Positions 1,650-40,044 of a stretch of DNA of 64,000 nt are shown one piece after another (within the stretch, counting starts at the first letter, position 1; the number at the start of each line of letters is the position of its first letter). This stretch comes from a phage. Made by a program: the position numbers and the translations under genes. The stretch lies in sequence record PQ826431.1. One strand, given 5' to 3'. Under the pieces are notes generated by a model that worked only from the letters and a program-made list of their open reading frames with translations, searched no databases and was not told the origin of the DNA.

Positions 1650-1694
1650 AATCCCTCCTTAAAATACTCCCTCCGAAAAGGGAGTATAAGTATA

Positions 1695-1898
1695 TCACGT
1701 AGTTGTTATGTTGTCTTCTTGGATACTAGAATCCACTTCTGCAAACATATCTTCTGCACTGTAATTATTTCCAGTCCAGCGTGATAAAAGGATAGCACCA
1801 ATCTCTTTTGCATGAGATTCGGACTCTGCATAAACGTTAGTCCCAGTGTCACCTTTTTTCTTTTCATGTGCATAAATGCAGTAATAATTGTAAGCCAT
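1695..1898 (-). CDS. hypothetical protein (67 aa)
   Basis: Small ORF in co-oriented array. Confidence 0.4.
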   Translation of the reverse strand: MAYNYYCIYAHEKKKGDTGTNVYAESESHAKEIGAILLSRWTGNNYSAEDMFAEVDSSIQEDNITTT

Positions 1899-2134
1899 TA
1901 ATCTTCCCAGTCATTGCCCTCGGTAGAGTGAACTAAAGCTCGCACGATACCACCGTAATCTACTGCCTGATTTGCAGCATGTTCGGCATAAACTTCAATG
2001 GCTTTTTTGAAGAAAAGAGCAGTAGCTGCTTCAATATTATCCATTTCGCCATCTACGTCAGTAGAAAGTGAAAGGTTGAGGCTTTCATCTACTTCATCAA
2101 AATCAATAGCCACTGTCATAATTAGTTTACCCAT
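1898..2134 (-). CDS. hypothetical acidic protein (78 aa)
   Basis: Small ORF abutting neighbours. Confidence 0.4.
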   Translation of the reverse strand: MGKLIMTVAIDFDEVDESLNLSLSTDVDGEMDNIEAATALFFKKAIEVYAEHAANQAVDYGGIVRALVHSTEGNDWED

Positions 2135-2146
2135 AGTTCACACTCC

Positions 2147-2656
2147 TTAAACAAAATAAAATGGTTGAGAGAGGCCCAAACGATTCTTTGGGTCGTATAC
2201 ATACCAAGCGTATGCTGTCTTATCTGTTCCACCTGCAACAAACGAAGGCCGTTCTGAAAGGACTATAAGGTTTGTTGGTGGATTCTTTTGATGGAACTCT
2301 CGTCGTTTCTTTGACTCCAAGAAGCCCAACCGAAGAAGATAAATACAAACATCCGCCTCTTTTAAGCTCTTTTCCAAGAACTCCATTGCTAACTTAAATG
2401 GAGGATTTGTGATTATAATGTCGGGACGATTTTCCCATTCATGACTAAAATAATCTTTACCTTCTTCAAGTTCGCAATATTCTGAACCTTCAGGAAAATG
2501 GCGATAAATCGCTTCAGCTTCACCTCTGCAAGGTTCTGCAAAAACCCAACCTTCTTCCTTTAGATTTTTGAAATCTATAACACTAAACAAACTATTGATT
2601 GCTTTTTGCGGTGTCGGATAATAATCGCTCGTTGGGCGATCATAATCTAATGCCAT
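2147..2656 (-). CDS. putative DNA N6-adenine methyltransferase (small phage Dam-like)
   Basis: Translation contains 'IIITNPPF' (NPPF/DPPY-type catalytic motif IV of N6-adenine/N4-cytosine MTases); size about 170 aa like small phage Dam enzymes; assignment is motif-based only. Confidence 0.4.
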   Translation of the reverse strand: MALDYDRPTSDYYPTPQKAINSLFSVIDFKNLKEEGWVFAEPCRGEAEAIYRHFPEGSEYCELEEGKDYFSHEWENRPDIIITNPPFKLAMEFLEKSLKEADVCIYLLRLGFLESKKRREFHQKNPPTNLIVLSERPSFVAGGTDKTAYAWYVYDPKNRLGLSQPFYFV

Positions 2657-3152
2657 CTAAAATCTCCTCTTTTGTAATATTATCCAACTCTTTAAAGGAT
2701 GAAATCTCGTTTAATAATCCTATTTGATCAGCTTCTAGAGGATAAGTGTTTTTATCTGTTTTTCTAGACAGAATATCTTCAACAAACTTATCAATAGCCA
2801 AAGAAGAATCATAAAATTTTAAAAGTTGGTAATCCATAGGAGATATTTTGTCATCTCTTAGAAATATTTCTAACATGTTTTCAGGAGTATCATGGTTTAG
2901 TTTATGTTCACCAAAAATATTAACTTCATAAACATCTTTGCCAAACCAACGTTTCTTCTTTTCAACAGTATAGGTTTTTGCCACCAGACCATCTAAACAG
3001 TTTCTTGCCCTCTTACATGTTTGACGGTAAGAGTGGATAGCGCCTTCAACAAACTTAGCAGGAACTTGTAACATTATTAATCTCCTATGTTTAAGAAATG
3101 CCCCCGAAGGGGGCAGTTTGTTAAATAGCGGTTCCTTCGAAATCCGCCACAT
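2640..3152 (-). CDS. hypothetical protein (170 aa)
   Basis: ORF preceded (minus sense) by GC hairpin and AGGAG RBS. Confidence 0.5.
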   Translation of the reverse strand: MWRISKEPLFNKLPPSGAFLKHRRLIMLQVPAKFVEGAIHSYRQTCKRARNCLDGLVAKTYTVEKKKRWFGKDVYEVNIFGEHKLNHDTPENMLEIFLRDDKISPMDYQLLKFYDSSLAIDKFVEDILSRKTDKNTYPLEADQIGLLNEISSFKELDNITKEEILDGIRL

Positions 3153-3813
3153 TTACGAGATTAATATTTTCAGATTTAGAAGTCAAGTTGTTTTCTGCAA
3201 CAGATTTTTCTTCAGTATCCGCCTCGTTACCTGCCACGTTACGAGGTTCTTCTTCACCGTAGGGATTACCGAATTTCAAAAGATTGATCAATTCTTCTTT
3301 GGAGAAGTTTTCTAAATCATCATCTGTTAATTCAATAATCTCGTCTTGTTCTTCAATAAATGTTTCACCACCAGAAAAAGCATCTCGCTTTTTAGCTACT
3401 TCCATAGCCTGTTCTGGTGTTGCTCCTGCATCAAGAGCAGCTAAAGCAAAGTCTGACCCGCTTCCTACCGCATAATATTCTTCATCAATCGGATATGCAC
3501 GTGTTGGGTTGTTACCTTCGTGCAGGAAAATACGTCCATCTGGATGAACAACAAGTGCAATAAACTCTTCATCTTCTTTATCTGGATCAGAGTGAATCAT
3601 CAAACCAGGGACAGCATCACGTGCTGCTTCGCACTGTAGATTTTGTTCAAACCATTGAAAGAAAGAAAGCACGGAGGTCAGACGACCAGCACCGCCTACA
3701 AGGTAATCTCCAATTTTTCGGACCTTTTTGAAATTAATAGAATCTACACGTCCACCAAAAGTTACCTTACCGTCACTCAAAATCTTATTTTTGGTCGCAA
3801 TAATTGTCGTCAC
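3121..3813 (-). CDS. Ntn-hydrolase / proteasome-HslV-like peptidase with acidic C-terminal tail
   Basis: N-terminus 'MTTIIATKNKILSDGKVTFGGRVDSINFKKVRKIGDYLVGGAGRLTSVLSFFQWFEQNL' parallels HslV/proteasome beta N-terminus (Thr right after Met, GxxGxxxD, 'AVGSGSDFALAAL' near C-domain); about 50 aa acidic C-terminal extension. Confidence 0.55.
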   Translation of the reverse strand: MTTIIATKNKILSDGKVTFGGRVDSINFKKVRKIGDYLVGGAGRLTSVLSFFQWFEQNLQCEAARDAVPGLMIHSDPDKEDEEFIALVVHPDGRIFLHEGNNPTRAYPIDEEYYAVGSGSDFALAALDAGATPEQAMEVAKKRDAFSGGETFIEEQDEIIELTDDDLENFSKEELINLLKFGNPYGEEEPRNVAGNEADTEEKSVAENNLTSKSENINLVNVADFEGTAI

Positions 3814-4316
3814 TATTCTTCCTCCTCTGTTAATGTTTTAAGAACCGCTTTCCCGCCATTCACATATTTGCAGATGTATTCTATCGCACGTAGTGTCTCT
3901 TTGTCAACAAAAATTTGATCAGACGTTGCGAGCGGGTTATTAAGAAGATCACTGCAATCACGAACAAGCAGTGCTTTCTTATTAAACAAATTACTTAAGA
4001 ACAGTAACTTCGCCTCTTCTTCTGTTATGTGCAGAAGGCTAGGATCGGAGCCAGCTATTCCTATTATACAATCAAACAAGCTTTCTTTACTATCAGAAAG
4101 TTCTTGAAAATGGTTTAAAAGCCAATCTTCTCCTAGACACCAACATTTAAACATTTCCAGTTTATCTCGGAGGGTCATATTCTCTAAAGTAAGAGCAATC
4201 TCTTTTTCAATATGGTTTACACAAATTTGACGAAATTCGTTAGGTTTTACGAGTCCCGTTTGATAGCACTCATCTATACCGCTTCTTCCGATAGCTATTG
4301 TTGCTACACCCATCAA
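3813..4316 (-). CDS. hypothetical protein (167 aa)
   Basis: ORF abutting Ntn-hydrolase gene; no motif recognised. Confidence 0.5.
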   Translation of the reverse strand: MMGVATIAIGRSGIDECYQTGLVKPNEFRQICVNHIEKEIALTLENMTLRDKLEMFKCWCLGEDWLLNHFQELSDSKESLFDCIIGIAGSDPSLLHITEEEAKLLFLSNLFNKKALLVRDCSDLLNNPLATSDQIFVDKETLRAIEYICKYVNGGKAVLKTLTEEEE

Positions 4317-4348
4317 TCCTCCTTATAAATGGCTTCCCTGCCACATTA

Positions 4349-5107
4349 TTAAATAAACACTTCAGTAATCAGTTTAGACAAACGTCCACGTTTATTATCG
4401 TCCGTTGTCAGTTCAACATATCCAATAAAATCTACAATTGGCTCACGAACACCCTCTTCATTCTCTGGATATAAAAGTTCCAAAATTTGATGCAGACCAT
4501 TGCTACGTTTTTTAATTGCATATGTCTGGCGAACATCGCCTAATACAATAACATGCGTATTAATACCTGCACGTTCAATAAGAAGTTTAAGTGTTTCTGT
4601 TGACATAAGTTGTGCTTCGTCAATAATGACGATTGTATTATCCAGGGTAGCCCCCAACAAATAGTTAGGAATATTCAATTCGATCTTACCTGATCCAATA
4701 TCGTTTTCCAATTTGTTGGCTGTCATGAATTGCTGGAAAATACGTTTTGTAGATTCATAGTGTGCTGCTAGTTTATCTGTTTTATCCCCAGACAAGAAAC
4801 CAATCTGGTCATCTCCGACTTCAGTAGGGTTCTTGATAAAAAGTAGTTTACGGAAGTCTCCTGAACGAAGCATCTGCAAAGCTTTCCATAAAGCAACAGA
4901 GGTTTTACCAGTCCCTGCCGGAGCATTTACAACAGTCAGATCATTCCAAATCATGCTTTGAACAATCTTATTTTGGTCCCCTTCAGGCATAAATTCATCT
5001 AAACGGTAATCGTCATTACCTACCGCTTTTGCTGCATAACGGCTTTCAATCTTTGCTGAATTAGCCAGTTTCTGCCGTTGTGTTTTAGCTGCGGTTTTAT
5101 TTCCCAT
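4349..5107 (-). CDS. phoH: PhoH-like ATPase
   Basis: Walker A 'NAPAGTGKTSVAL' and overall PhoH-family pattern; start moved from track position 5158 to internal ATG at 5107, which is preceded by AAAGGAG RBS and lies downstream of the lysozyme stop and a GC hairpin. Confidence 0.8.
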   Translation of the reverse strand: MGNKTAAKTQRQKLANSAKIESRYAAKAVGNDDYRLDEFMPEGDQNKIVQSMIWNDLTVVNAPAGTGKTSVALWKALQMLRSGDFRKLLFIKNPTEVGDDQIGFLSGDKTDKLAAHYESTKRIFQQFMTANKLENDIGSGKIELNIPNYLLGATLDNTIVIIDEAQLMSTETLKLLIERAGINTHVIVLGDVRQTYAIKKRSNGLHQILELLYPENEEGVREPIVDFIGYVELTTDDNKRGRLSKLITEVFI

Positions 5108-5144
5108 AGTAGCACTCCTTTTAGAAGGGGCCGAAGCCCCTTTA

Positions 5145-5645
5145 TTAGTTGTAAGCATCTAAAGTTCCAGAAGTCAGAACTTTAATTACTCGTTCAGCAC
5201 GGTTTGGCGTCTGGCTATACCATCGGCTTTTACGCATGTTTTTACCTGCTTGAGTATAATATGCATTGCTGATTAAAGTCAAGCTATTTTGAAACCCTTC
5301 AGCACCTTTTAACCCCAACTGGAAAACCATGTTGATTATTCCCAATTTACGAGTATCACTAACCTTATCATAGATTGGTGATAAGATAGTACTGTTTTTT
5401 ATGTCTCTCTTCACTTTTGCAACATCGTCAGCAAAGATTTGACGGGCTTCTTTTTCTGTGATAACTCCATTAGTCTTACGACCAAGAAGATTATCTAAGA
5501 TTTGAATAGCCTTTGCTTTATCTTTTATTTTAGTCAGAAGGTGTCCTATGCCGACTGTCCAATAACCAAGATGGTCTTGATAAACAGTAAGCTTCAGTCC
5601 TTCATCGACTCGTAGCATATCAAACTCATCTACTACTTTAGCCAT
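5145..5645 (-). CDS. e: endolysin, T4 E-type lysozyme (GH24)
   Basis: Translation 'MLRVDEGLKLTVYQDHLGYWTVGIGHLL...NGVITEKEA...INMVFQLG...SRWYSQTPNRAERVI' closely parallels T4 lysozyme ([28 protein letters not shown] ... SRWYNQTPNRAKRVI). Confidence 0.9.
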   Translation of the reverse strand: MAKVVDEFDMLRVDEGLKLTVYQDHLGYWTVGIGHLLTKIKDKAKAIQILDNLLGRKTNGVITEKEARQIFADDVAKVKRDIKNSTILSPIYDKVSDTRKLGIINMVFQLGLKGAEGFQNSLTLISNAYYTQAGKNMRKSRWYSQTPNRAERVIKVLTSGTLDAYN

Positions 5646-5807
5646 TTACTTCCTATTCGTCGTCTCCTACTCCGTGATCCAACTCGTTAAACAACAAATG
5701 TTCTGGAGAAGTTTCACGTTTTGGTTTCGTTTTCTTTATGTTGGACTTCAGCTCATTTGCCAAAGCACGAGAAAAGATCTTACGTTTCTGTTTACTTTTC
5801 ATAATTG

Positions 5808-6068
5808 TTACTCCGCAATTTGAGCCATGAGATCACGCAGTTCGGTAAAACCGCCTACGTATGTTACCTCCCCGTTCACTTCAGACAGAATTTGTGGAAA
5901 TGTGCGTGGAGGAACTCCGGTAAGATCAACAACTGTTTTAGTCATTGATTCTAAATCATAGTCTTGATCAAGACTTAAATATTCAAACTGTTTATTGCGC
6001 ATGGTTAATAGTTGTTTTGACATTTCGCAAAATTGACAGTTAGGTTTACCAAAAATTACAAATTCCAT
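5808..6068 (-). CDS. glutaredoxin/NrdH-like redoxin
   Basis: 86 aa with 'CQFC' active-site-like motif near N-terminus ('FGKPNCQFCEMSKQLL') in the nucleotide-metabolism cluster. Confidence 0.55.
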   Translation of the reverse strand: MEFVIFGKPNCQFCEMSKQLLTMRNKQFEYLSLDQDYDLESMTKTVVDLTGVPPRTFPQILSEVNGEVTYVGGFTELRDLMAQIAE

Positions 6069-6910
6069 TACCTCTCCTTATTAAGTAATACTGCTAAAGA
6101 CTGTTCAATACCTTTATTTAAATCTGATTTTGTAAGATAGTGACTGGTTACTAGTTGTGACTTCACCGGACGTGCTGCTGGAGCATTATAGGTTGAAGCT
6201 GATACCGCCGATATCTTAACAGGTTCTGGCATCTGTGTCAAGATCTTTTCCGCAAACTCCGCCCAAGAAATAAAATGGCTTCCTGCAAAATGGTAAGTCT
6301 TAACAGACCTTGACCAACCTGTTTTTAATACTTCAAAAATAGCTTCTGCTAAATCTGGAGCATATGTTGGACAAGAGAACTGATCAGCAACAACAATAAA
6401 ATCACGTTGTCCATCATTATAGCGAGACAACATGGTTTTTAGAAAGTTATTTCCAAATTCGCTATATACCGAGGCTGTTCGAATAATATATGCATTTGGG
6501 TTAACTCCTCGCACCATTTTTTCACCAAGTTCTTTCGTATACCCATAATTGTTTATTGGGTTAGGTGTAGTATCTTCAAAAATAGGATGAGAATAATTAA
6601 AAATATAATCTGTAGAAATATGCACAAAATCAATTTTAAGTTTGCTGCACACTGCCGCAATATTTGCAGGTCCATACGCATTAACAGCCAAAGCAGTAGC
6701 AAAATCATGTTCTGCTTTATCTACAGCCGTATAAGCGGCGCAATTAATAACACCATCTACATAATCTTCAACAATAGCGTTTCGCACAGCTTCAAAATTT
6801 GTAATATCTACACGTTCTTTAGGATAAATTAAAGATACATTTGAAGGAACCACTTTACGTAAAGCTTGTCCCAGTTGTCCATTACCGCCCAATACCAGAT
6901 ATGTTAGCAT
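6068..6910 (-). CDS. rmlD: dTDP-4-dehydrorhamnose reductase (RmlD/RfbD-like)
   Basis: Rossmann 'LVLGGNGQLGQAL', and blocks 'CAAYTAVDKAEHD', 'HISTDYIF', 'NYGYTKELGEKMV', 'IIRTASVYS', 'ADQFSCPTYAPDLAEA' matching RmlD conserved regions. Confidence 0.8.
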   Translation of the reverse strand: MLTYLVLGGNGQLGQALRKVVPSNVSLIYPKERVDITNFEAVRNAIVEDYVDGVINCAAYTAVDKAEHDFATALAVNAYGPANIAAVCSKLKIDFVHISTDYIFNYSHPIFEDTTPNPINNYGYTKELGEKMVRGVNPNAYIIRTASVYSEFGNNFLKTMLSRYNDGQRDFIVVADQFSCPTYAPDLAEAIFEVLKTGWSRSVKTYHFAGSHFISWAEFAEKILTQMPEPVKISAVSASTYNAPAARPVKSQLVTSHYLTKSDLNKGIEQSLAVLLNKER

Positions 6911-7470
6911 ACACCCTCGCTACGTAACTGTTGAAAAGATTTAGCCATTGCATCTTTTGTTGATAGGATAGGTTTAAAACCTTCGTCAAAAATCATATCG
7001 AAGCCCCAATCGATCCCTATGTCAGGATCATCCCAACGTAAACTTTGTTCACTAGAAGGGTCGTATGGAGTTGTGCATTTGTATTCAAAGATCGCATCCA
7101 TACTCAAAACTATAAAACCATGTGCCAAACCAGGAGGAAGCCAAAACTGCGTATGGTGTCGTGCACGAAGAACAACACCGTCCCAAGCACCGTAAGTTGG
7201 ACTGTCTTTACGTAAGTCTACAGCGAAATCCAATACTTCCCCACTTACACAACGAACAAGCTTACCTTGCGGATTATTTGTTTGAAAGTGCATTCCTCGC
7301 AAAACACCGAAGTTTGATTTAGACATATTATCTTGAACGAAAGTTTGTTTACCAATAATATCTTCGTATTTTTGTTCATTGTATGTTTCTAAAAAGAAAC
7401 CACGATCATCTTTATAAACGTCTGGTTTGATAATTACCGCACCTTCAATTTTTGTTTTTTCTACTTTCAT
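6904..7470 (-). CDS. rmlC: dTDP-4-dehydrorhamnose 3,5-epimerase (RmlC/RfbC-like cupin)
   Basis: 'VLRGMHFQ...GKLVRCVSGEVLDFAVDLRKDSPTYGAWDGVVL...LPPGLAHGF' matches RmlC cupin signature; overlaps rmlD start by 7 nt. Confidence 0.8.
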   Translation of the reverse strand: MKVEKTKIEGAVIIKPDVYKDDRGFFLETYNEQKYEDIIGKQTFVQDNMSKSNFGVLRGMHFQTNNPQGKLVRCVSGEVLDFAVDLRKDSPTYGAWDGVVLRARHHTQFWLPPGLAHGFIVLSMDAIFEYKCTTPYDPSSEQSLRWDDPDIGIDWGFDMIFDEGFKPILSTKDAMAKSFQQLRSEGVC

Positions 7471-7479
7471 TTTCTCTCC

Positions 7480-7806
7480 TTACCAGACATGTTGAGAAAT
7501 AATAGTTTCCGTTTTAATGTTATATTTTTCAAGTAGCTCTGCATAGGCTTCTTTTGCATTCTCATTCAATTGCTCAAGATCTACAGCTATGCTTCCTTCT
7601 CCACCTTCTAAATCAAGGCCATATATGCAATAAGACTCATCTGCATCGTAGAAAGGAGAGATGCGGCTTAAGTCAAGACCTTCTTGTAAGAACCAATTAA
7701 AATCTCCATCAAATTCTTCTTCAATTCTAGGATCTTCTCCTACAGCCTCTTCCCACTTATTAAAAGGTGCACCCTGTAACATACGCCATTCGATATCAAT
7801 ACCCAT
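7480..7806 (-). CDS. hypothetical acidic protein (108 aa)
   Basis: ORF in array. Confidence 0.45.
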   Translation of the reverse strand: MGIDIEWRMLQGAPFNKWEEAVGEDPRIEEEFDGDFNWFLQEGLDLSRISPFYDADESYCIYGLDLEGGEGSIAVDLEQLNENAKEAYAELLEKYNIKTETIISQHVW

Positions 7807-7981
7807 TTTTCATCTCCTCCTCTTCTTGAGCAGCTTTAATAATTGCTTCATAAATATCGTAAGCAATGCCTCCACAACATCTAGCTTCGAAAGCTATTGC
7901 TTCTGCAATGTGATCTGTTAATTCTCGTGGAATACGGACATACTCTTTTTCATTCTCCATCTTCCACCTCTTCTTTTTCAA
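7796..7981 (-). CDS. hypothetical protein (61 aa)
   Basis: Small ORF overlapping neighbour by 11 nt. Confidence 0.35.
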   Translation of the reverse strand: MKKKRWKMENEKEYVRIPRELTDHIAEAIAFEARCCGGIAYDIYEAIIKAAQEEEEMKNGY

Positions 7982-8095
7982 AGACTACTACTCGTCCCTC
8001 ACCATGACAATTCAGGCAAGGAAATGTTACCATAATTTCCACTTCCATCTGTCCAGTCCCACCGCACACAGGACAAAAAATAAGTTTTTCAGCCA

Positions 8096-8305
8096 TTATT
8101 CCTCCTTAATTATTTCAAACTTGGCAACACCATTTACAATAATATGACCACAAGACATAACTCCTAGCCAAGGATCGCCGTTTTTCTTCAGGCGTTTACC
8201 GAATACATCACAAAAACCATTCTTCATTTCGGAGGCTTCATAAGAAGCCCCTTTGTCAAAAACGTCTTTGAATGTGTCGATTATACCAACACATCTCAAA
8301 ATCAT
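8096..8305 (-). CDS. hypothetical protein (69 aa)
   Basis: Small ORF immediately upstream of nrdB (stop overlaps). Confidence 0.4.
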   Translation of the reverse strand: MILRCVGIIDTFKDVFDKGASYEASEMKNGFCDVFGKRLKKNGDPWLGVMSCGHIIVNGVAKFEIIKEE

Positions 8306-9390: not shown

Positions 9391-9433
9391 TTAAAATTCT
9401 CCTCAATAAAAAGGGGCCGAAGCCCCTTTATAT

Positions 9434-10087
9434 TTAGCCTCGAAATACTGTTTTTGTTTCCGCCAGGTGCCAATAGAAATCCGCCTTGTTTACAAGAGTG
9501 TTGTACACCTCTGGATAAAAATGTTCTTCCTCTTTGTAACGATCCGCTGTTTCCCTGATTGACTTAGCTTTATCTTTTAGCCAAGCGAAGTGTGCCTCTT
9601 CCTCTGTAGCGAAGTAACCTAAATGCTTTCCTTTGTGTCCAGATGATTTAGAAGAAATCTTACCATCGGATTTTCTTACAGTTACCCCTAAAAGGGATTT
9701 TCTTTCCGTCCTTTTTGAGTAACTTAACAGAGTATTCACATATGCTGGAACAAACCTACAATACGCTGGACAATAGACCGTATTACCTTCAAGTACAAGG
9801 TCTTTGTCCAGAACAAAGTTTGCTACAAAGTTTTCTTGATACCACATGTCGAAGTTTGAAAACATAAACCACTCGTCACAAACCGTCACACCTGTATACC
9901 CAGGTCTTGCTTGTTCCATTTTATAGGCTCTTTCGAACATGTTTTTCCAAGCTTTGTAAGACGGGTCTGGCTTCCCGTCTACAAATAATCGTCTTTCTAC
10001 ATCAACTACTAAGGGGATTTCTCCCCTTTCGGTAGTAACGGTCACTGCACGTTTACCTTTGAGCATTTGACCTCCTACATGCTGCAA
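9434..10087 (-). CDS. free-standing HNH-family homing endonuclease-like protein with AP2-like C-terminal DNA-binding region
   Basis: Located between nrdB and nrdA; shares 'CDEW..F.NF' block and C-terminal 'KGKHLGYFATEEEAHFAWLK' (AP2-like) with the paralog at 20446..21075. Confidence 0.55.
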   Translation of the reverse strand: MQHVGGQMLKGKRAVTVTTERGEIPLVVDVERRLFVDGKPDPSYKAWKNMFERAYKMEQARPGYTGVTVCDEWFMFSNFDMWYQENFVANFVLDKDLVLEGNTVYCPAYCRFVPAYVNTLLSYSKRTERKSLLGVTVRKSDGKISSKSSGHKGKHLGYFATEEEAHFAWLKDKAKSIRETADRYKEEEHFYPEVYNTLVNKADFYWHLAETKTVFRG

Positions 10088-12321: not shown

Positions 12322-12337
12322 CTTCTCCTCCCTATTA

Positions 12338-12592
12338 TTAATGCATATTCAAAACATCTACATCATAACCGAACTTCATTTCATTAAAAAGTCCATTAGC
12401 ATATAGAAAACCTTCAAAATGAGTTATGTCATCAAACCCTTTTGCTTTTGCTCGACGGTCTGCTTCTTGTCTTTTAGGAGATAAACGTTTTGAAGTGTCT
12501 AGAATTACAGTTACATTACAACCAACAGTTTCATCAAAATAGACTTCGATTTCACAGCCTTCATATTTATTATCAGTCATTGTCCCTCTCAT
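12338..12592 (-). CDS. hypothetical protein (84 aa)
   Basis: ORF directly downstream of nrdA. Confidence 0.45.
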   Translation of the reverse strand: MRGTMTDNKYEGCEIEVYFDETVGCNVTVILDTSKRLSPKRQEADRRAKAKGFDDITHFEGFLYANGLFNEMKFGYDVDVLNMH

Positions 12593-13032
12593 TGATTAGT
12601 ATCATCTGCTTTCGCAGGATCATAAGAGTTACCGAAATCATCCATCTTAATATGTGACGCACCCCAACCTGTAAATTCTTCATCACCAAAATGAAAAATA
12701 TCATTTTCTTGATAGATTCGTTTAAAACCACAATTAGGTGAAACAGGGAAAGTGAAAAGCGTTGTATTTGCAAACACTACTCGCTTATCGTTATTGCTTC
12801 GGATATTCACATTACGCTCAACAGAATAGTGTGAATCTTCAGCCATACCCAGCATTACAAGCGACGCTCTAATAACAGCATTTTGTTTCTCGTGTGGGAT
12901 ATTACCATTGTGTTTATTTGATTCTAGTTTCCAGATAGGGGTAGACATTACAGTAGACATGCTTACGGTAGCCCAAGTTGTAGTATTTACTAATGACATA
13001 TTTTCTCCTTCATTTTGAATGGGAGGACTCAC
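12589..13032 (-). CDS. hypothetical protein (147 aa)
   Basis: ORF with 4-nt overlap to neighbour. Confidence 0.45.
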   Translation of the reverse strand: MSPPIQNEGENMSLVNTTTWATVSMSTVMSTPIWKLESNKHNGNIPHEKQNAVIRASLVMLGMAEDSHYSVERNVNIRSNNDKRVVFANTTLFTFPVSPNCGFKRIYQENDIFHFGDEEFTGWGASHIKMDDFGNSYDPAKADDTNQ

Positions 13033-13097
13033 CTCCTCCCAGTATTGTGCTATATTATACTAAAACTAATACTAAAGTCAATAACTATTTAAACAGA

Positions 13098-14096
13098 TCA
13101 CCATTTAGTATGATTTGTTAAAAGTTGACGATGTTGAATCCAGCCTTTGAAATTGCCAGACCAAAACTTACCATTACGATCTACATGGGTAATGCCTGGC
13201 TCCCAAGAGTTAAAATCCCAAGGAGCATTGATAAACAAATCTTCAAAACAGTTCTCTCCATATTGTTCGTATGTTTCTTGCATTGGAGTGGCTTGATGTT
13301 CAAACGGAGAAGCATGAACCTTGCGCCCAGTCAGCAAACGACCATAGATATCTAAAGCTTTATCTTTAGTTGCATTCAAACGACGATAGCTAACCTGTGC
13401 ACAACACGAAGCTGAAATAGCTTTGGCTTCTTCCAAAGTAAGCACAACAACTTCTCCAGATTCATCTTGAACGTAGTATCCACCAAAAACAAAATGATCG
13501 TCACCTTCTGTGCCAATAGTATCATAGAAATGGTCTACATAAGGTGTGTGCCATTGCCCTGGTTTCAGCACTTCTGGTGTAGATCCTTCATACTCTTTGT
13601 GCATCTCTTTAGCCAAAGCTTCGATAGTAGGATCGGCTTCTTTGTCATCACGCAGCCACCAGAAATTTTCATATTCTGTTGCTGTCAGAACTGTTTTAAT
13701 TCGTTGGAAAGGTTCCAGAAGACGGTTTGCAACTTGTTTGTGGTACCCTGCCAAAGAGAATTCTTCTGCAAAACGTGCTGCACTAAGCGCGGCAAGATCC
13801 CACCACTCTTGAGCAGTATAACCTGCATCAATAAGAGCGTCATGATCAACACCTTTATCCTGCATACCAGGTTGGTTAGCCCCAAAACGATAAGGACGAG
13901 CAGGTTGATTTCGCACCATTTCAATCAGTGTTTTAACAGGTATAGCACGGCTAGAAGCAGCATTACGACTGAACAGGCGGTGAGTCATCAATTCTGAATG
14001 AATAATACGTGGATATTCTAGTTCAAAAGTTACAATCTCTTTTCCGTCTTCAGTGATGGAATGCGCAATAATACTAGCCGAAATCTGTTTTGTCAT
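13098..14096 (-). CDS. thyX: flavin-dependent thymidylate synthase (ThyX-like)
   Basis: 'LMTHRLFSRNAASSRAIP' resembles the ThyX RHRxxxxxxxSxR signature; sits in the nucleotide-metabolism block; 332 aa is longer than typical ThyX. Confidence 0.6.
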   Translation of the reverse strand: MTKQISASIIAHSITEDGKEIVTFELEYPRIIHSELMTHRLFSRNAASSRAIPVKTLIEMVRNQPARPYRFGANQPGMQDKGVDHDALIDAGYTAQEWWDLAALSAARFAEEFSLAGYHKQVANRLLEPFQRIKTVLTATEYENFWWLRDDKEADPTIEALAKEMHKEYEGSTPEVLKPGQWHTPYVDHFYDTIGTEGDDHFVFGGYYVQDESGEVVVLTLEEAKAISASCCAQVSYRRLNATKDKALDIYGRLLTGRKVHASPFEHQATPMQETYEQYGENCFEDLFINAPWDFNSWEPGITHVDRNGKFWSGNFKGWIQHRQLLTNHTKW

Positions 14097-14112
14097 TTTT
14101 TCTCCTTAGTTT

Positions 14113-14715
14113 TTAAAAATTGTTCAAAGTGTTAAAAACATCCAAACATGTTAGCCACTGATCTTCTAAACCTGTGATCACAACATTTGGTTTTTTCTTT
14201 AGTTCTTCTAGATGGTTATCTTTATAAGGCGTATTAAAATATATTTTAACCACTTCATCTGGAAAATATAGTAGGTTATCAGCCCTGTCATCTATTGCTA
14301 TATCACAAGGCAATAAGTATTTTTCTTTCGTAGCAAAAAAGCCGTTGCCAGATCCTTTGCTAAAATCAATCGTATCTAATGTTCTTAAAACATGCTTATG
14401 TTTAGAACTTAAGTGACCACCTTTTGTCACACTTGCGATCAAAAGATTGCTACCTTTCCTTGAAACATACTTTAAGAAATCTGGCATACCTGGAACAAAA
14501 CCCATTGTATCATAGAGATGAGGATTATCCAGAAATCCGTAAGGATCTATATTGAACTCCTCCCTGAAACCAGGAAAGTAGTTGGTAAGATCATAGTCTG
14601 CATTTTTTGTGAATGTGTCTATCTTAACACCAAGTCCACTAATCTTATTCAACCATTCTAACCAAGCAACATCTAATGGAGCCACAACTAAATCCCAATC
14701 ACATACTATCTGCAT
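14113..14715 (-). CDS. putative 5'(3')-deoxyribonucleotidase (HAD-like)
   Basis: N-terminal 'VCDWDLV' (DxD nucleophile motif) and 'IAIDDRADN' (IDDR block) as in 5'(3')-deoxyribonucleotidases; motif-level only. Confidence 0.45.
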   Translation of the reverse strand: MQIVCDWDLVVAPLDVAWLEWLNKISGLGVKIDTFTKNADYDLTNYFPGFREEFNIDPYGFLDNPHLYDTMGFVPGMPDFLKYVSRKGSNLLIASVTKGGHLSSKHKHVLRTLDTIDFSKGSGNGFFATKEKYLLPCDIAIDDRADNLLYFPDEVVKIYFNTPYKDNHLEELKKKPNVVITGLEDQWLTCLDVFNTLNNF

Positions 14716-14753
14716 AAAACCTCCTCTCTCTCTTTTAGTATAGTTATCTTATA

Positions 14754-15329
14754 CTAACTTTCAATTTCCTGCAATAGGATTTTGACTATTTGTTTGCGGC
14801 GTTTTGCTACTGTGCTTTCAGGTTCTATTTTACGCTTCTTCAGCCATGCCTTATCTTTCTTAGCTCTACACAAAGCTATCGCTTCTTTTTCAGCTTTTGC
14901 TTCTTCAAAAGATATGCCTTGCTTGTCTGCATAAGCAAGAATAGAGTTGCACAATTTACAAACCATTCGCAAATCTTCTTCTTTCACATAGATCAAACGG
15001 AAAACAAAAAGAGGAATATCATCAAAACATTGAAGTTGTTTTGCTGCGTGAATATGATCCACTTGGAAGTCTTTCATTCCTCCCCTATGTCCACATATTT
15101 CGCACTCACAATTCCAAACTTGTTTTGGTTTTCCAGTTTTCTTGTCTATCATTACATTGCCGTCTTTATCTACTCGATCAACTTTAAAACGCCTTGCATT
15201 GATAACCTTAATTTTATTAGGGTGTCTCATCCATGCTTTTCTAAAACATCCCCTAAGATAAGTATAAAATTCAGCTTGTGTTTTCCAGGGTGTTCCTTCA
15301 CCCCACATTATTTTTGGTTCACCTGCCAA
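14754..15329 (-). CDS. putative recombination endonuclease VII-like (His-Me finger, zinc-binding)
   Basis: 'CECEICGHRGG...FQVDHIHAAKQ...VCKLCNS' mirrors T4 endo VII 'CLICQREL...HLDHDH...LLCNLCN' architecture. Confidence 0.4.
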   Translation of the reverse strand: MAGEPKIMWGEGTPWKTQAEFYTYLRGCFRKAWMRHPNKIKVINARRFKVDRVDKDGNVMIDKKTGKPKQVWNCECEICGHRGGMKDFQVDHIHAAKQLQCFDDIPLFVFRLIYVKEEDLRMVCKLCNSILAYADKQGISFEEAKAEKEAIALCRAKKDKAWLKKRKIEPESTVAKRRKQIVKILLQEIES

Positions 15330-15552
15330 TATTGCTCACCTTTTTAGCTGTATATTCCCCTGGTGGGATATTGTGTTTAAAAAACAAAAGGCGGTCTAAC
15401 CCCGCCTTGCACATTGTTTCTGGAATAGTCAAAGTTAGTAAAAGTTTATCACCTTTTCGGTTGAATATTTTATAAACTTCTCCTGCTCCATATTGTTTAG
15501 TATTGCTCGCCACTAATACGTTCCTTAAGTTGTTTAATAGCTTCAACTGCAT
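15319..15552 (-). CDS. hypothetical protein (77 aa)
   Basis: Small ORF partly overlapping the 15497..15898 gene; coding status uncertain. Confidence 0.25.
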   Translation of the reverse strand: MQLKLLNNLRNVLVASNTKQYGAGEVYKIFNRKGDKLLLTLTIPETMCKAGLDRLLFFKHNIPPGEYTAKKVSNIGR

Positions 15553-15898
15553 CTACATAAGAAGAGTTATACATGTGTTTCAGTGCCACTCGGATTAAAG
15601 GATCTTTTGTGAAGAAATCAATAAGAAGCATAGCTTGATCATGTTTAGCTGCATTTGTCATAGATGGATAATTTTCACGAACCATATACGTGTTATTTTC
15701 CATAAGGGTTCTTTCTAGTTCAATACAATGAATAGCTTTATCTAGGTTAATCTGACGTTCACCTTTGATACGTGTTGCGTATTTTGCCAATTTGCAAAAA
15801 CAAGGTGTGCCACCAACCAAATAAGCTAGTTCAATAGGTTGCATTGCCATTTTTGTGTAGTGATCACCGTCAACCTGATTATCAAAAGCATTAGACAT
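15497..15898 (-). CDS. DUF3310-like phage protein
   Basis: 'GDHYTKMAMQPIELAYLVGG...CKLAKYATRIKGERQINLDKAIHCIELER' matches the pattern I recall for the DUF3310 family (HY...IE.I...F.KGN.IKY..R); function unknown. Confidence 0.45.
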   Translation of the reverse strand: MSNAFDNQVDGDHYTKMAMQPIELAYLVGGTPCFCKLAKYATRIKGERQINLDKAIHCIELERTLMENNTYMVRENYPSMTNAAKHDQAMLLIDFFTKDPLIRVALKHMYNSSYVDAVEAIKQLKERISGEQY

Positions 15899-16154
15899 AA
15901 TTTTCCTCCTGAATTCCTACTGCGCCGTCTTCTGGGTAGTCTGTATAATAAGCTACCCTACCTTGATAGATAACATCACCATCGCTATTGTAGATTGCTG
16001 TATCTTCTTGAATTGTTATTTCAACGTCAAGTAAATCTGGGTCTTTCTCGATGGTATAGTTCAAACCTAACATTTCAAACAGTTCGAAAATTTCGTTACC
16101 TGTTAATGTAATGCTCATATTTCCTCCTTTTATTGTGGTTAGCAGAGTATACAC
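15891..16154 (-). CDS. hypothetical protein (87 aa)
   Basis: ORF with 8-nt overlap to downstream gene. Confidence 0.4.
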   Translation of the reverse strand: MYTLLTTIKGGNMSITLTGNEIFELFEMLGLNYTIEKDPDLLDVEITIQEDTAIYNSDGDVIYQGRVAYYTDYPEDGAVGIQEENYV

Positions 16155-16204
16155 TAATATAAAATTTTTGTCAATAAAAAAGGGAGCAATAAGCTCCCTG
16201 ATTA

Positions 16205-17164
16205 TTAGATTCCAATAATAGTTGCTGCTCGTTTATCCTTGGATCTGGTGTTTGCTCTACTACGTGACAAACCTCCACAAGATTCACAACGAATGATATC
16301 GAAAGAACTTACCGCAGTGTGGTATTGTTTACCAGTAACAACGTGAACGTGATCACTGCCACAACGAGAACAACGGACCTTCTCATCTGGGTAATAAGCG
16401 GATAAGTTAGGATGCTGTGGAATCCACGGAAGGATTTTCATATACAAATCACGGAGTGAAACAACATCACCATCATTGTAAATCTGCATACGTTCAAAAG
16501 CATCACGATCACCTTCACAACATGCTTTCCATAAAGGGAACCCCTCGTTATCCAGTTTTTCACTTTCTGTTTCGAAATATGCTCCCATTTCTTTAAGGGA
16601 GTTGGAAGGAAGTGCAAATTGTTTCTTAGCTGCCTTCAATGTATCAACGACTACATAATTAGAAGGAGGAGCCATATCGTGATATGCAAATCGTTGGTTA
16701 ATGTATGCACGGTCAAACTTATACCCGTTGTGTGCCACAACTACATCTGCCTCGTTCAGAAGGTTCCAAAGATCTTGGCAAAGCTCCCAATCATCTGTAT
16801 GATCAATATCAAAAAGAGGATAAGAAGACAAGTTCTTACCTTCCACTTCACCTGTATACAAATCAGCAGAAGAGTAAGATAACAAATAACCCCTACGAAT
16901 TACTTGATCTGGAGAAATGAAGGCTTTGAATCGACGGAAAGTATATGCAATCTCTGGTGCAGTTTCAACATCAATAATTTTAATAACTGGTTGTTTCTTT
17001 TTAACTGGCTCTTGTCTACTTGCTCCGAATCGTGCAAGGAAATCGTTCACTGTGCTTTTTCTTGTTGGACTACCTAAAACAATTGCTGCAATATTGCGAG
17101 AAGACATACCCTCTGCACTCATACTAAGGATATCTGCTTTCTGCTCTTCTGTTAATCTGCTCAC
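16205..17164 (-). CDS. DnaQ-like 3'-5' exonuclease (DEDD family) with N-terminal HTH-like region and C-terminal zinc ribbon
   Basis: Exo I 'IKIIDVETAPE', Exo II 'VVAHNGYKFDRAYI', Exo III 'YNDGDVVSLRDLY'; C-terminal CxxC...CxxC. Confidence 0.6.
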   Translation of the reverse strand: MSRLTEEQKADILSMSAEGMSSRNIAAIVLGSPTRKSTVNDFLARFGASRQEPVKKKQPVIKIIDVETAPEIAYTFRRFKAFISPDQVIRRGYLLSYSSADLYTGEVEGKNLSSYPLFDIDHTDDWELCQDLWNLLNEADVVVAHNGYKFDRAYINQRFAYHDMAPPSNYVVVDTLKAAKKQFALPSNSLKEMGAYFETESEKLDNEGFPLWKACCEGDRDAFERMQIYNDGDVVSLRDLYMKILPWIPQHPNLSAYYPDEKVRCSRCGSDHVHVVTGKQYHTAVSSFDIIRCESCGGLSRSRANTRSKDKRAATIIGI

Positions 17165-17850
17165 TCTGCCTCCTGTTGCGAGATGTATGACTGAAGCATA
17201 CTCTCAAATGTTGTATCGTCATTATCCCAGCGTTTCATGTATACCAACTGGAAAATTGTTTCTATCCATTCATCTGTTGTCATATGGACTTCTTCTCCAT
17301 CCCAAGAAGTAAAATTAACACCATCTGGGAACCATGAGTAGTAAGTATCTTTAACTGTTTGGAAAAGTTCTGCTTGAGTTTTACAAGCTGAAAGAAGATT
17401 AAAACAAGTAATATCTCCGAACTTAATATCAAAATCTTGATAAGGTCGGATACTATCTGTTTTATCTCCCATTAGCATCTGGTATGCTAACCAGTAACTG
17501 CCCCAACCTTTAACTTCTTTCTTTTTACCTTTATCTACGATCCATATATCGCCAATAGACTCGTCAATAAGAATTATATCTGGATTTTTAAATACTCCAT
17601 CCTCTTTGTAGAAATTAAAAAGGATACTAGGAGTATGTAAACTATCTTTATCTATAGATACTACGATATAAGAAAATTTACCCGTCCTTTTATAATCTTT
17701 ATAACCTTGGAAACCATACTTCTCTAACTCATCATCAGCTTCTATTACAGTAACAACATCACCATTGTGGAACTCCACAAGATAATCTTTGGTTTCTGAA
17801 AGCTGAAGTGGTTTGATATCTAATCGTTCAGATTTATATTCTACAGGCAT
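17161..17850 (-). CDS. hypothetical protein; the same frame is open for a further 147 sense codons upstream (17851..18291) with no ATG/GTG/TTG
   Basis: Track ORF from ATG at 17850; manual translation shows coding-like open frame up to the TAA at 18292-18294. Confidence 0.5.
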   Translation of the reverse strand: MPVEYKSERLDIKPLQLSETKDYLVEFHNGDVVTVIEADDELEKYGFQGYKDYKRTGKFSYIVVSIDKDSLHTPSILFNFYKEDGVFKNPDIILIDESIGDIWIVDKGKKKEVKGWGSYWLAYQMLMGDKTDSIRPYQDFDIKFGDITCFNLLSACKTQAELFQTVKDTYYSWFPDGVNFTSWDGEEVHMTTDEWIETIFQLVYMKRWDNDDTTFESMLQSYISQQEAE

Positions 17851-18291
17851 TTTGAAGGCGTGTCTGAAAGTTTTTCCTACGCCAATAACTCCGCAATATT
17901 TTTCTAAACGTAGATGTTTTAGAATACCTAAGACTTTTGTTTTAGCTGCTTGGAAGGTGTGTCCGATATCTTCTGGCGGGTATTGCTTATCAATGATTTC
18001 GAACTCTTCCTTTGTGAAGGGACGTTTGTTTTTGGAGGCTCTTTCTGCATTTGTATCTCCTAGCCAACCTCCAATTTTAGTCTTACTTTTACCCCAAAAC
18101 TCTGTCTTATTTTTAAATTCCTTTTGAGCACCTGAAGGGATGTGCTTCGCAATGATTGTTCTTTTCTCTAATGCAGACGCTGCTTGGAAAGCGATCTGAT
18201 CATAATCAATTGCAGCTATTGTTTCTTCGTTGACATATAAATGAAGATCTTCAGGTTTAATTAAAATATAACCGCTAATATTTCCCCCTAA

Positions 18292-18501
18292 TTATTCATC
18301 GTCATCCTCTGTTGAGAATGTTTTAGTATACGGACATTGACGACTTTTCGGGATTGCTATAACTTCATCTTGGTTAGCGTTAGAATAGTAGCAATATTTT
18401 GTATTGCCATTAACTTCAGAATCAGACAAGATTAAAGTAATTTGACCTGCTGCTACTGTGAAACTAAAAGCTAAAAGAACGACTGTCAGAATCTTTTTCA
18501 T
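18292..18501 (-). CDS. small secreted/exported protein (signal peptide)
   Basis: N-terminus 'MKKILTVVLLAFSFTVAAGQ' is a typical Sec signal peptide; two Cys in the mature part. Confidence 0.5.
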   Translation of the reverse strand: MKKILTVVLLAFSFTVAAGQITLILSDSEVNGNTKYCYYSNANQDEVIAIPKSRQCPYTKTFSTEDDDE

Positions 18502-18572
18502 AACGCCTCCTAAAAGCCTACCTCATTAAGTAGGTAGGCATAATATCATAACTAATCCCGCAAGTCAAGAAC

Positions 18573-19451
18573 TTATTTAAGGATTGTTGCTTTGGTTAAA
18601 TCTTCCATCAGACCTCGAATCTCATTGAAGCACAGAAGGACCGAAGCTTCAATACTACCTTCTTCGTCTGCAAAATATTTCGGAAAACGTAGTTTAGAAA
18701 GTTTAAACTCTTTATCCACTACAAAATCTACAACACCATCATATTCAAGACCGATTGCAACAACATTTTTACCATCTTCTTTTAGTTCGACAGCTTTAGA
18801 CTCATATAAGGATTCTTTACTCCAAACAACAACGCCCTCGCTATCCTCCATTTTGATATAATTTCCGAGAGTAATACGATCTGCTTCGTGATTCTCCAGC
18901 AATTCACCAAAACCTTTTACAATAGCTTCTTCATGCACACTAAAACCTACTGAAGGGAAAGTCCCCAGAACGGAACGGAGGAAAGAAGTAATCTCTTCTG
19001 CAACCTTTTTACTTCCATTAAGAACATAAAGAAGATTCGTAGTTTTATCCAAGACAACATAGTTAAAGAAATCTTCAGGTTCTGTTTCAGGCAATAGTGC
19101 AAATTCAATATCTTCCTTCATTGCTTTGACTACTTCTTTATCGACATAAAACTCTTTACCTTCGCTCTCCATGTCCTGACGCATTTCTTCTAGACGTTCA
19201 TTCAGAATACGTTTAACTTTCTTTTTATCTACCTTCTTCACAGATTGACCTACATTAAGTAGTTCAAGATCTGAGAACTCTTTTACAAATTTAGAGTCAT
19301 CTTCGAAACGAACAAGACCGATAGTGTGTGACTGGGAGCCTTCTGCTGTTACAAATTCCAGAGGAATATCTGTAATGCTGTTAAGGGATGCTACAGAAGC
19401 ATCGTCACCAACAACCATAGGCAGAGCGGATTTAAAAGATTTTACAAACAT
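18573..19451 (-). CDS. hypothetical acidic protein (292 aa)
   Basis: ORF followed (minus sense) by GC hairpin; no motif recognised. Confidence 0.5.
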   Translation of the reverse strand: MFVKSFKSALPMVVGDDASVASLNSITDIPLEFVTAEGSQSHTIGLVRFEDDSKFVKEFSDLELLNVGQSVKKVDKKKVKRILNERLEEMRQDMESEGKEFYVDKEVVKAMKEDIEFALLPETEPEDFFNYVVLDKTTNLLYVLNGSKKVAEEITSFLRSVLGTFPSVGFSVHEEAIVKGFGELLENHEADRITLGNYIKMEDSEGVVVWSKESLYESKAVELKEDGKNVVAIGLEYDGVVDFVVDKEFKLSKLRFPKYFADEEGSIEASVLLCFNEIRGLMEDLTKATILK

Positions 19452-19507
19452 GTTTCCTCCTATTTAATACATCTCACATTACCGCCCGTAAAGGGCGGCT
19501 TACAACA

Positions 19508-35224: not shown

Positions 35225-35227
35225 TTG

Positions 35228-35256
35228 TTGACAAAAGTCACTTTAAAGTGTATTAT
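35228..35256 (+). promoter_or_regulatory. sigma70-like promoter (TTGACA-N17-TATTAT)
   Basis: Read from sequence between terL and portal. Confidence 0.45.
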
Positions 35257-40023: not shown

Positions 40024-40044
40024 TAGAACTCTGTTAAGATTAGA

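Follow-up and report, generated by a model that had tools for sequence, protein, structure and literature searches.

Short intercistronic hairpins with a C(UUCG)G loop have been described on phage T4 mRNAs (Tuerk et al., 1988, as related in PMC4371310 and PMC8948821), and the roles proposed for them are mRNA stability, termination and, in the gene 32 leader, 5′ stabilisation. In E. coli, the ribosome represses a terminator almost completely when 8–17 bp separate it from a stop codon, and termination is maximal beyond 30 bp (PMC4824070). Further comparable stem-loops are the REP elements (malE-malF), the 5′ stabilisers of the ompA and T4 gene 32 leaders, and the PeSL cassettes of T4-like phages, in which a stem-loop is directly followed by a sigma-70-type early promoter (PMC2839356, PMC4122927).

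We analyzed a window of 64,000 nt (PQ826431.1), which is from a Phapecoctavirus, a coliphage of the phAPEC8 type. The literature yielded no transcriptomic study of Stephanstirmvirinae or Vequintavirinae; Rfam identified tRNAs only in the sequence, and single proteins scanned against IMG/VR gave 1 and 7 loci, each of them from a close relative. The relatives compared were EF1-1, phiWec190/186, phi92, FKP3, KP2025, PaulScherrer and Seunavirus. Conservation was assessed by an independent hairpin search at each orthologous junction instead of formal pair counting, because MAFFT misaligned the 13020–13041 orthologues structurally (phi92 was shifted by one). The hairpins found are an ordinary kind of element, with precedents since 1988 in the T4 CUUCGG hairpins and in intrinsic terminators, and they probably constitute a three-class set acting on the sense mRNA, ordinary for a large virulent coliphage using the host RNA polymerase. 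The eight minus-strand hairpins (J1–J8) and the promoters near them are as follows.

1664–1687, minus strand: J1 hairpin AUACUCCCUU-UUCG-GAGGGAGUAU, beginning 7 nt past the stop codon of a 67-aa gene and followed by UUUUAAGGAGG
3099–3115, minus strand: J2 hairpin UGCCCCC-UUC-GGGGGCA, then UUUCUUAA, 3′ of the HslV-like peptidase gene
5125–5142, minus strand: J3 hairpin AAGGGGC-UUCG-GCCCCUU, 2 nt past the lysozyme stop codon, with the tail CUAAAAGG
9410–9429, minus strand: J4 putative canonical intrinsic terminator GGGGC-UUCG-GCCCC, then UUUUUAUU, between an HNH ORF and nrdB, 19 nt upstream of the nrdB start
13081–13054, minus strand: sigma-70-type promoter TTGACT-16-TATAAT (11/12 matches), upstream of J5
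13020–13041, minus strand: J5 hairpin UGGGAGGA-GGUGAG-UCCUCCCA, 10–12 nt 3′ of the −10 box
16181–16199, minus strand: J6 putative canonical terminator AGGGAGC-UUAUU-GCUCCCU, then UUUUUUAUU, 3′ of the DnaQ-like exonuclease gene
16174–16146, minus strand: promoter TTGACA-17-TATACT (11/12 matches), adjoining the J6 terminator
18568–18540, minus strand: promoter TTGACT-17-TATTAT, upstream of J7, its −10 box being of the TGn extended type
18516–18539, minus strand: J7 inverted repeat GCCUACCU-N8-AGGUAGGC, then UUUUAGG, adjoining the extended −10 box
19481–19499, minus strand: J8 hairpin GCCGCCC-UUUAC-GGGCGGU, 8 nt past the NTP-pyrophosphohydrolase stop codon, with the tail AAUGUGAG

All six hairpins of the original prediction were recovered on the minus-strand mRNA with small corrections of coordinates and loops, including that at 19481–19499, whose predicted stem was off by one base, and each of the six has a stop codon before it and the next gene's Shine-Dalgarno sequence after it, in agreement with what had been proposed. 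Two hairpins within the same range, at 13020–13041 and 16181–16199, had been missed, and the description as nearly identical applies to 5125–5142 and 9410–9429 only, the others differing in sequence. At 18516, a conserved promoter separates the hairpin from the stop codon. All eight have stems of 6–10 bp with 4–6 G-C pairs. Terminator scores were approximately 44 for J6, 41 for J4 and 32 for J2, each with a U tract; 10 for J1, 9 for J3 and 8.5 for J7, with marginal U tracts; and −1 for J5 and −13.5 for J8, both without a U tract. J4 was missed by the promoter/terminator scan, which demands at least five U in 8 nt, because its maximal stem takes up three U of the tract.

Hairpins of this kind occur in marked excess. 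Those of −11 kcal/mol or below gave 20 strand-hits in 5,784 intergenic nt versus 18 in 58,216 coding nt, approximately a tenfold density, and 12 of the 26 short same-strand gaps contain a sense-strand hairpin that pairs perfectly and reaches −10 kcal/mol or below, compared with 0.45 ± 0.61 (maximum 2) in 200 dinucleotide shuffles; both the existence of the hairpins and their excess are thereby demonstrated. GGGGC-UUCG-GCCCC is present in exactly two copies in the window (5125–5142 and 9410–9429) versus 0.01 expected. The 19 CTTCGG/CCGAAG hexamers in the window are about as many as base composition would give, and four of them form stems, all intergenic and all in sense orientation. The J1 hairpin (ΔG −13.2) was equalled by 0/200 shuffles, and region 5108–5147 was matched by 26/200. 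Since the whole-region MFE z-scores of single junctions are modest (−1.1 to −3.9), the case rests on the collective excess together with conservation. Shuffling leaves runs of G and of C intact.

Among lineages with 35–86% protein identity, a hairpin was found at the orthologous junctions with stems or loops differing, the exception being J2, for which the orthologous-junction search found no hairpin in PaulScherrer (phi92 is not among the J2 rows). In phiWec190/186, the UUCG loop of J1 tops another stem that is longer, and the J2 triloop of the window is replaced by UGCCCC-UUCG-GGGGCA in EF1-1 and phiWec190/186. The J3 stem is unchanged in all lineages sampled, with UUCG, GCAA, GAAA or GUAA as the loop, and this exchange of UNCG for GNRA on a fixed stem points to selection for stability and not for a specific sequence. 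The nrdA-nrdB hairpin, GGGGC-UUCG/GAAA-GCCCC, was found in every relative examined, Seunavirus included, with the variants GGGGU in phi92 and GGGGGC-UUU-GUCCCC in PaulScherrer. J5 has a different stem in each lineage at the same position 3′ of the promoter; at J6 every relative, Seunavirus included, has a terminator with another stem or loop; J7 pairs in phi92 through a U-G wobble and has one mismatch in FKP3; and J8 shows five different stems with mostly UUCG loops. Position is thus conserved while the sequence turns over, which these comparisons demonstrate. The sequences also show where U tracts and promoters are present or absent, and U-tract status is itself conserved per junction: the tails of J6 and J4 are U-rich throughout, J3 tails contain 2–4 U, and J8 tails across relatives are never clearly U-tract-like (judged by eye, only the tail of the window being scored; the phiWec190 tail would pass the 5-of-8 rule).

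A sense bias was likewise demonstrated. Outside ORFs, tetraloops in sense orientation comprised 22 UNCG and 14 GNRA, together 36, and the same classes in antisense numbered 1; these counts cover the window and the loci of six relatives, which are partly redundant, so that 36 to 1 overstates the independent events. The two classes represent 36/56 of the tetraloops outside ORFs, and the summed ΔG is −206 in sense versus −164 in antisense. This bias indicates selection on the mRNA. G-U wobbles that pair on the mRNA only were present at 19481–19499, in phi92 J4 and J7, and at 35265–35295, where ΔG is −17.7 in sense and −2.7 in antisense.

The hairpins resemble those of T4 in their G+C stem, C-G-closed UUCG loop, mRNA strand, mostly intergenic location and host, a large virulent coliphage, and the roles proposed for them are likewise the same. 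On the mRNA strand, C-G closure applies to 5125–5142 and 9410–9429 in the window, to J2 in EF1-1 and phiWec190/186, and to J8 in phiWec190/186, phi92, FKP3 and KP2025, and the UUCG loop of J1 is closed by U-G. They differ from those of T4 in belonging to Stephanstirmvirinae and in the free exchange with GNRA and non-tetraloop variants. Intrinsic terminators of E. coli and coliphages are matched by 9410–9429, 16181–16199 and 3099–3115 and by late sites at 31761, 44531 and 47335; UUCG and GAAA loops are said to be common in E. coli terminators, a finding of 1990 attributed to d'Aubenton-Carafa and colleagues. Unlike those terminators, the phage sites are situated inside gene arrays, 2–8 nt past stop codons, and must leak because the downstream genes have no promoter room; moreover, 19481–19499 and 13020–13041 have no U tract and that of 5125–5142 is marginal.

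The minus-strand array had been viewed as a single leftward operon, which does not hold because three junctions carry conserved sigma-70 promoters with TTGAC and −10 elements (13081–13054, 16174–16146 and 18568–18540). The −35 and −10 boxes of the J5 promoter are kept in phiWec190/186, phi92, FKP3 and KP2025, and among the relatives it is kept in Stephanstirmvirinae, its status in Seunavirus being unclear; the J7 promoter is conserved in all Stephanstirmvirinae relatives examined, and phiWec190/186 have TTGACA-17-TACAAT 3′ of their J6 terminator. In the window, 16199–16146 is a composite terminator-promoter. At nrdA-nrdB, all relatives examined have a terminator-like hairpin ahead of nrdB and too little space for a promoter (the Seunavirus spacer is 48 nt), so read-through must occur there. 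The idea that the hairpins are partial terminators is supported by anatomy and conservation for some of them, which look like terminators and must nevertheless be read through; one uniform class is not supported, since there are at least three.

Termination, leakiness and mRNA-stability effects are predicted throughout from sequence features, and the most likely roles would be those of ribosome-suppressed leaky terminators and exonuclease barriers. In the first class, a G+C-rich stem with a U tract would make an intrinsic terminator (9410–9429, 16181–16199, 3099–3115 and, weakly, 1664–1687); because these hairpins begin only 2–8 nt past the stop codon, suppression by the terminating ribosome is expected, which would leave them leaky and make them attenuators between cistrons. 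In the second, equally stable hairpins have a marginal (5125–5142) or missing (19481–19499) U tract and would terminate inefficiently; J8, in particular, is not a terminator. After read-through or endonucleolytic cleavage, such a hairpin would stay as the 3′ end of the upstream cistron and block 3′-to-5′ exonucleases, raising the relative yield of that cistron. The suggestion that the hairpins stabilise mRNA would suit these members without a U tract, and resembles REP elements, which are also stable intercistronic stem-loops without a U tract: by analogy, the phage hairpins could guard the mRNA upstream of them against 3′ exonucleases and determine differential expression. At 14–24 nt they are much shorter than REP elements; they are also phage-encoded and not a dispersed repeat family. 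The third class is promoter-proximal, comprising 13020–13041 and possibly 18516–18539, and its hairpins would lie at the 5′ terminus of a newly started transcript or close to it, where they may shield that transcript against 5′-end-dependent decay. J5 is predicted about 5 nt (3–6 nt) past a typical start, reckoned from the −10 box, and is probably a 5′-UTR stem-loop comparable to the ompA and gene 32 leaders; it is conserved in structure and not in sequence, and 35265–35295 is similar. The role of J7 is ambiguous, as transcription likely starts inside its 5′ arm, which makes it a poor fit to either a 5′ hairpin or a clean terminator.

The same kind of hairpin extends into the plus-strand late genes, and another is found within a minus-strand coding region.

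8232–8251, minus strand: hairpin GGGGCUUC-UUAU-GAAGCCUC, inside a 69-aa ORF downstream of nrdB
31761–31779, plus strand: late-region hairpin
40042–40070, plus strand: late-region hairpin
44003–44023, plus strand: late-region hairpin
44531–44550, plus strand: late hairpin AAAGGGCA-GAAA-UGCCCUUU, then UUAUCAUU, 3′ of a tube-like structural gene
47335–47352, plus strand: late-region hairpin with a UUCG loop
58157–58174, plus strand: late-region hairpin

The late-region hairpins are located 3′ of major head, sheath, tube and tape-measure genes; those at 31761, 44531 and 47335 have a G+C stem, short loop and sense U tract 3′ of a stop codon, and 47335–47420 is a composite of stem-loop and early promoter. 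The proposal that hairpins tune stoichiometry would fit those 3′ of the genes for the major head protein, the tail sheath and the tube. It is unlikely, in our estimate, that hairpins abutting stop codons without a full U tract (5125–5142, 19481–19499, 44003–44023 and 58157–58174) form a dedicated ‘punctuation’ layer, in which every hairpin would flag a processed 3′ end that resists exonucleases and would, quite apart from termination, determine the half-life of the cistron it belongs to. In that case thermodynamic stability would be the sole target of selection, and this would account for UUCG-to-GNRA swaps on a fixed stem. The hairpin at 8232–8251, whose stem stays paired relative to phi92 through two double compensatory changes, all synonymous at the codon level, is a possible member of such a layer. 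A terminator-like hairpin at 15388–15408 was excluded from the system, being inside a conserved 64-aa ORF and not conserved in relatives; it served as a negative control for conservation.

The original prediction tied the hairpins to the downstream RBS, and they might be translation elements that fold the spacer away, leaving the RBS unstructured or promoting translational coupling. Each hairpin ends 4–20 nt upstream of a strong Shine-Dalgarno sequence, and T4 hairpins, for example at gene 25, improve RBS geometry (work cited in PMC3014915). The hairpin nevertheless tracks the upstream stop codon: the stop-to-hairpin distance stays at 2–10 nt (J1, J6, J8) where the downstream gene is replaced, J8 persisting 3′ of the same gene, and the hairpin is retained even across an intervening promoter and a spacer of ~75 nt, whereas the hairpin-to-start distance varies from 14 to 75 nt, which leaves the proposed link unsupported and a translational role improbable. 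Quite unlikely, too, is action at the DNA level, as protein-binding palindromes or operators, or as PeSL-like recombination sites for cassette shuffling. In its favor, 18516–18539, which covers the probable start of transcription and adjoins the extended −10 box, is a perfect 8+8 palindrome, an 18-nt hairpin occurs as two identical copies in direct orientation with a distance of 4.3 kb, an HNH ORF is located between the nrdA stop and the conserved J4 hairpin, and the composite 16199–16146, like 47335–47420, has the PeSL arrangement (PMC4122927). However, the sense-strand tetraloop bias and the mRNA-only wobbles argue against it, and the 18516 palindrome occurs once in the window, on which ground an operator family was rejected, its phi92 copy being imperfect as DNA and still pairing as RNA. 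A PeSL-type repeated cassette was rejected as well, as the window has at least 60 direct-repeat families, of which the 20 largest held only tRNA-derived and weak repeats and no extended cassette family; and no hairpin borders the rmlA/rmlB indel seen in comparison with EF1-1, although the HNH ORF does adjoin the 9410 hairpin.

As happens in T7, RNase III or another specific endonuclease could divide the polycistron into mRNAs of one cistron each, and the hairpins are indeed intercistronic and adjoin AU-rich single-stranded stretches. RNase III needs ~20 bp, roughly two helical turns, of double-stranded RNA. Because the stems have only 6–10 bp, with no internal loop and no coaxial extension upon folding of the flanks, the predicted processing by this enzyme appears very improbable, and the free exchange of stems and loops among relatives speaks against sequence-specific recognition. 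RNase E prefers AU-rich single-stranded stretches, and its cleavage beside the hairpins is compatible with the three-class reading and not a rival to it. Compositional chance, that is, runs of G and C pairing by accident in short AT-rich spacers, draws some support from single-junction dinucleotide shuffles, which often fold nearly as well (as at 5108–5147). It is effectively refuted by the comparative data, with position conserved across two phage subfamilies, and the 12 observed against 0.45 expected, the tenfold density and the prevalence of UNCG/GNRA tetraloops leave it an almost negligible probability.

Conceptually, the three-class hairpin set adds nothing new to the T4 and E. coli precedents. 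If confirmed, it would show where transcription units and zones of mRNA stability begin and end in therapeutic phages of the phAPEC8/phi92 type, and would provide natural short terminators and stabilisers as well, with their strength set by U-tract content and stop distance, which would be useful for phage engineering.

All six hairpins reported in the original prediction were found in the window, on the mRNA strand; the last stem spans 19481-19499 rather than 19483-19499. At 3099-3115, the hairpin was present but its loop had been misassigned: a UUC triloop closes a stem of 7 bp, since the window carries one C more than EF1-1 and phiWec190/186, which converts a 6-bp C(UUCG)G tetraloop hairpin, the form found in close relatives at this site, into the triloop form. 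The hairpins had been called nearly identical, but true likeness is limited to 5125-5142 and 9410-9429; GGGGC-N4-GCCCC occurs exactly twice in the window versus 0.01 expected. Two additional hairpins in the same range had been overlooked (13020-13041 and 16181-16199), and similar sense-strand hairpins were found among the late genes (at 31761, 35265, 40042, 44003, 44531, 47335 and 58157).

The first 20 kb of the window is matched at 97-99% identity by ~60 Phapecoctavirus (phAPEC8-like) E. coli myoviruses, and at ~76% across conserved genes by phi92-like Justusliebigvirus. The leftward array had been regarded as a single operon, which it is not. The gene layout is as follows:

1-28143, minus strand: nucleotide metabolism and replication genes, including PhoH, rmlC/D, nrdA/B, thyX, DnaQ-like exonuclease and RdgC
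29603-31645, plus strand: tRNA cluster of 10-11 genes, between the divergent gene arrays
31761-31779, plus strand: canonical terminator AGCCUCC-UUAUU-GGAGGCU followed by UUUUUGC, 3′ of the tRNA cluster
From 31853, plus strand: structural genes

The window keeps rmlC and rmlD only; rmlA and rmlB (glucose-1-phosphate thymidylyltransferase and dTDP-glucose 4,6-dehydratase), located between rmlC and a 108-aa ORF in EF1-1 and most relatives, are cleanly missing at 7470-7480.

As a set, the hairpins exceed chance, while the case for any single junction is weaker. Of 26 gaps of 20-160 nt between genes on the same strand, 12 contain a perfect hairpin of ≤ −10 kcal/mol in sense orientation, versus 0.45 ± 0.61 (maximum 2) in dinucleotide shuffles, and the density of hairpins of ≤ −11 kcal/mol in the window was ~10-fold higher in intergenic than in coding sequence. 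Whole-region MFE z-scores of individual junctions were modest (−1.1 to −3.9), because G and C runs survive shuffling.

Outside ORFs, 22 UNCG and 14 GNRA tetraloops were counted on the sense strand and only 1 antisense equivalent, the loci being partly redundant, and G-U pairs in several stems are mismatches on the opposite strand. This indicates that the coding-strand RNA is the object of selection. The distance from the upstream stop codon to the hairpin is 2-10 nt, even where the downstream gene differs (1664-1687, 16181-16199 and 19481-19499), which assigns the hairpin to the 3′ end of the upstream cistron and argues against an element of the downstream RBS. A negative control was provided by 15388-15408 (minus strand), where a hairpin resembling a terminator, with UUUUGUUUUUU, falls within a conserved ORF of 64 aa, ~60 nt upstream of another HNH endonuclease gene (14754-15329); this hairpin is lost in relatives by synonymous changes, and so appears to be lineage-specific or due to chance.

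Homologous regions were compared in EF1-1, phiWec190, phiWec186, phi92, PaulScherrer, the Klebsiella phages FKP3 and KP2025, and two Seunavirus phages, which belong to another subfamily than Stephanstirmvirinae; orthologous junctions were placed via flanking proteins (35-86% identical), and the best hairpin was sought independently at each. Nearly every orthologous junction holds a stable hairpin, whose sequence turns over, and each junction keeps its own U-tract status across the phages. Among these phages, the GGGGC/GCCCC stem 3′ of the lysozyme gene is invariant with a UUCG, GCAA, GAAA or GUAA loop, and five distinct stems, most with UUCG loops, follow the NTP-pyrophosphohydrolase gene. A hairpin with a U tract follows the DnaQ-like exonuclease gene in every phage, Seunavirus included. 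In the Stephanstirmvirinae relatives, thyX is followed by a conserved TTGAC..-10 promoter and, 10-12 nt beyond it, by a lineage-specific purine-rich stem; the hairpin is also kept in Seunavirus, there beside a doubtful promoter. Between nrdA and nrdB, all phages carry a GGGGC-UUCG/GAAA-GCCCC-type hairpin (GGGGU stem in phi92, GGGGGC-UUU-GUCCCC in PaulScherrer), followed by a clear U tract in all except PaulScherrer.

Several further features were observed around these junctions. An HNH endonuclease ORF (9434-10066, minus strand) separates the nrdA stop from the conserved nrdA-nrdB hairpin, resembling mobE between nrdA and nrdB of T4-like phages, and contains another, GAAA-looped hairpin (10011-10028) shared with phi92; other lineages have a 109-125-aa ORF 3′ of the hairpin, and Seunavirus only a 48-nt spacer. 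Just downstream of nrdB, within a 69-aa ORF (8096-8305), the hairpin GGGGCUUC-UUAT-GAAGCCUC (8232-8251, minus strand) encodes KGASYEAS; phi92 has the identical peptide with two double compensatory synonymous changes (U-A to C-G and G-C to A-U), thus preserving the stem, which may be a functional RNA structure in a coding region. In phi92 and PaulScherrer, the junction 3′ of the 67-aa gene homologue holds a recombinase/invertase gene preceded by a promoter (TTGACT-17-CATACT) and the hairpin CUUCCUGU-AACAGA-ACAGGAGG, which may sequester the RBS, the Shine-Dalgarno lying within its 3′ arm. At 17851-18291 (minus strand), the 5′-3′ exonuclease ORF, whose annotated length in close relatives is 229 aa, continues without a stop and with homology for ~115-134 codons further upstream (over 342-360 aa, 78-82% identity to the phiWec190 exonuclease and phi92 gp085). 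No ATG, GTG or TTG was found in this extension, and a conserved GGAGG/GGGGGA-AAT-AT(T/C) right past the upstream stop codon suggests that the extended protein begins at a non-canonical AUU/AUC.

These hairpins are another instance of a well-known kind. The phenomenon was first described in T4, where C(UUCG)G hairpins often occur between the cistrons of an mRNA and have been associated with termination, with stops of reverse transcriptase and with mRNA stability (Tuerk et al. 1988, as relayed in PMC4371310 and PMC8948821). Predicted terminators are already listed in genome papers on related phages, with 20, beside 33 promoters, for rV5 (PMC3606486) and 55 for Phapecoctavirus ASO2A (PMC10612097). 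At 16199-16146, terminator and promoter form a composite similar to PeSL, the cassette of T4-like phages (PMC4122927), but no extended cassette was present among the 20 largest of at least 60 direct-repeat families in the window, and Rfam gave no family matching the hairpins. Modestly notable are the conserved hairpins without a full U tract, the compensated coding-region hairpin and the swaps of tetraloop class seen at one and the same junction.

A d'Aubenton-Carafa-type score, serving as a ranking only, placed 9410, 16181 and 3099 as clear terminators (31-44), 1664, 5125 and 18516 as marginal (8-10), and 13020 and 19481 as non-terminators. The hairpins do not form one uniform class. The terminator-like sites begin 2-8 nt past a stop codon, and since nrdB, for one, lacks the space for a promoter of its own, RNA polymerase must pass them. 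When an E. coli terminator is 8-17 bp away from a stop codon, the terminating ribosome represses it almost completely; its full strength is regained at distances above 30 bp (PMC4824070). From these considerations we infer three roles: the terminator-like hairpins would be leaky, ribosome-suppressed terminators, those whose U tract is marginal or missing would be barriers to 3′ exonucleases, and 13020-13041 would be the 5′-proximal hairpin of a new transcript. The promoter-hairpin architecture of the latter is matched at 35225-35325 (plus strand), where TTGACA-17-TATTAT is followed after 8 nt by a 14-bp hairpin (35265-35295), stable on the sense strand only because of G-U pairs (−17.7 versus −2.7 kcal/mol antisense), preceding a 521-aa gene located after the large terminase gene. 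The role of the hairpin at 18516-18539 is ambiguous. An extended −10 box lies directly against it, and most of its 5′ arm would be missing from a transcript initiated at this promoter; the hairpin may be a weak terminator of upstream transcripts or a DNA operator. Among the functions originally proposed, partial terminators and stabilizers are plausible, while RNase III sites are unlikely, the stems being too short. In the late region, hairpins come after the major head, tail sheath, tube-like and tape-measure genes, a placement that fits a tuning of stoichiometry.
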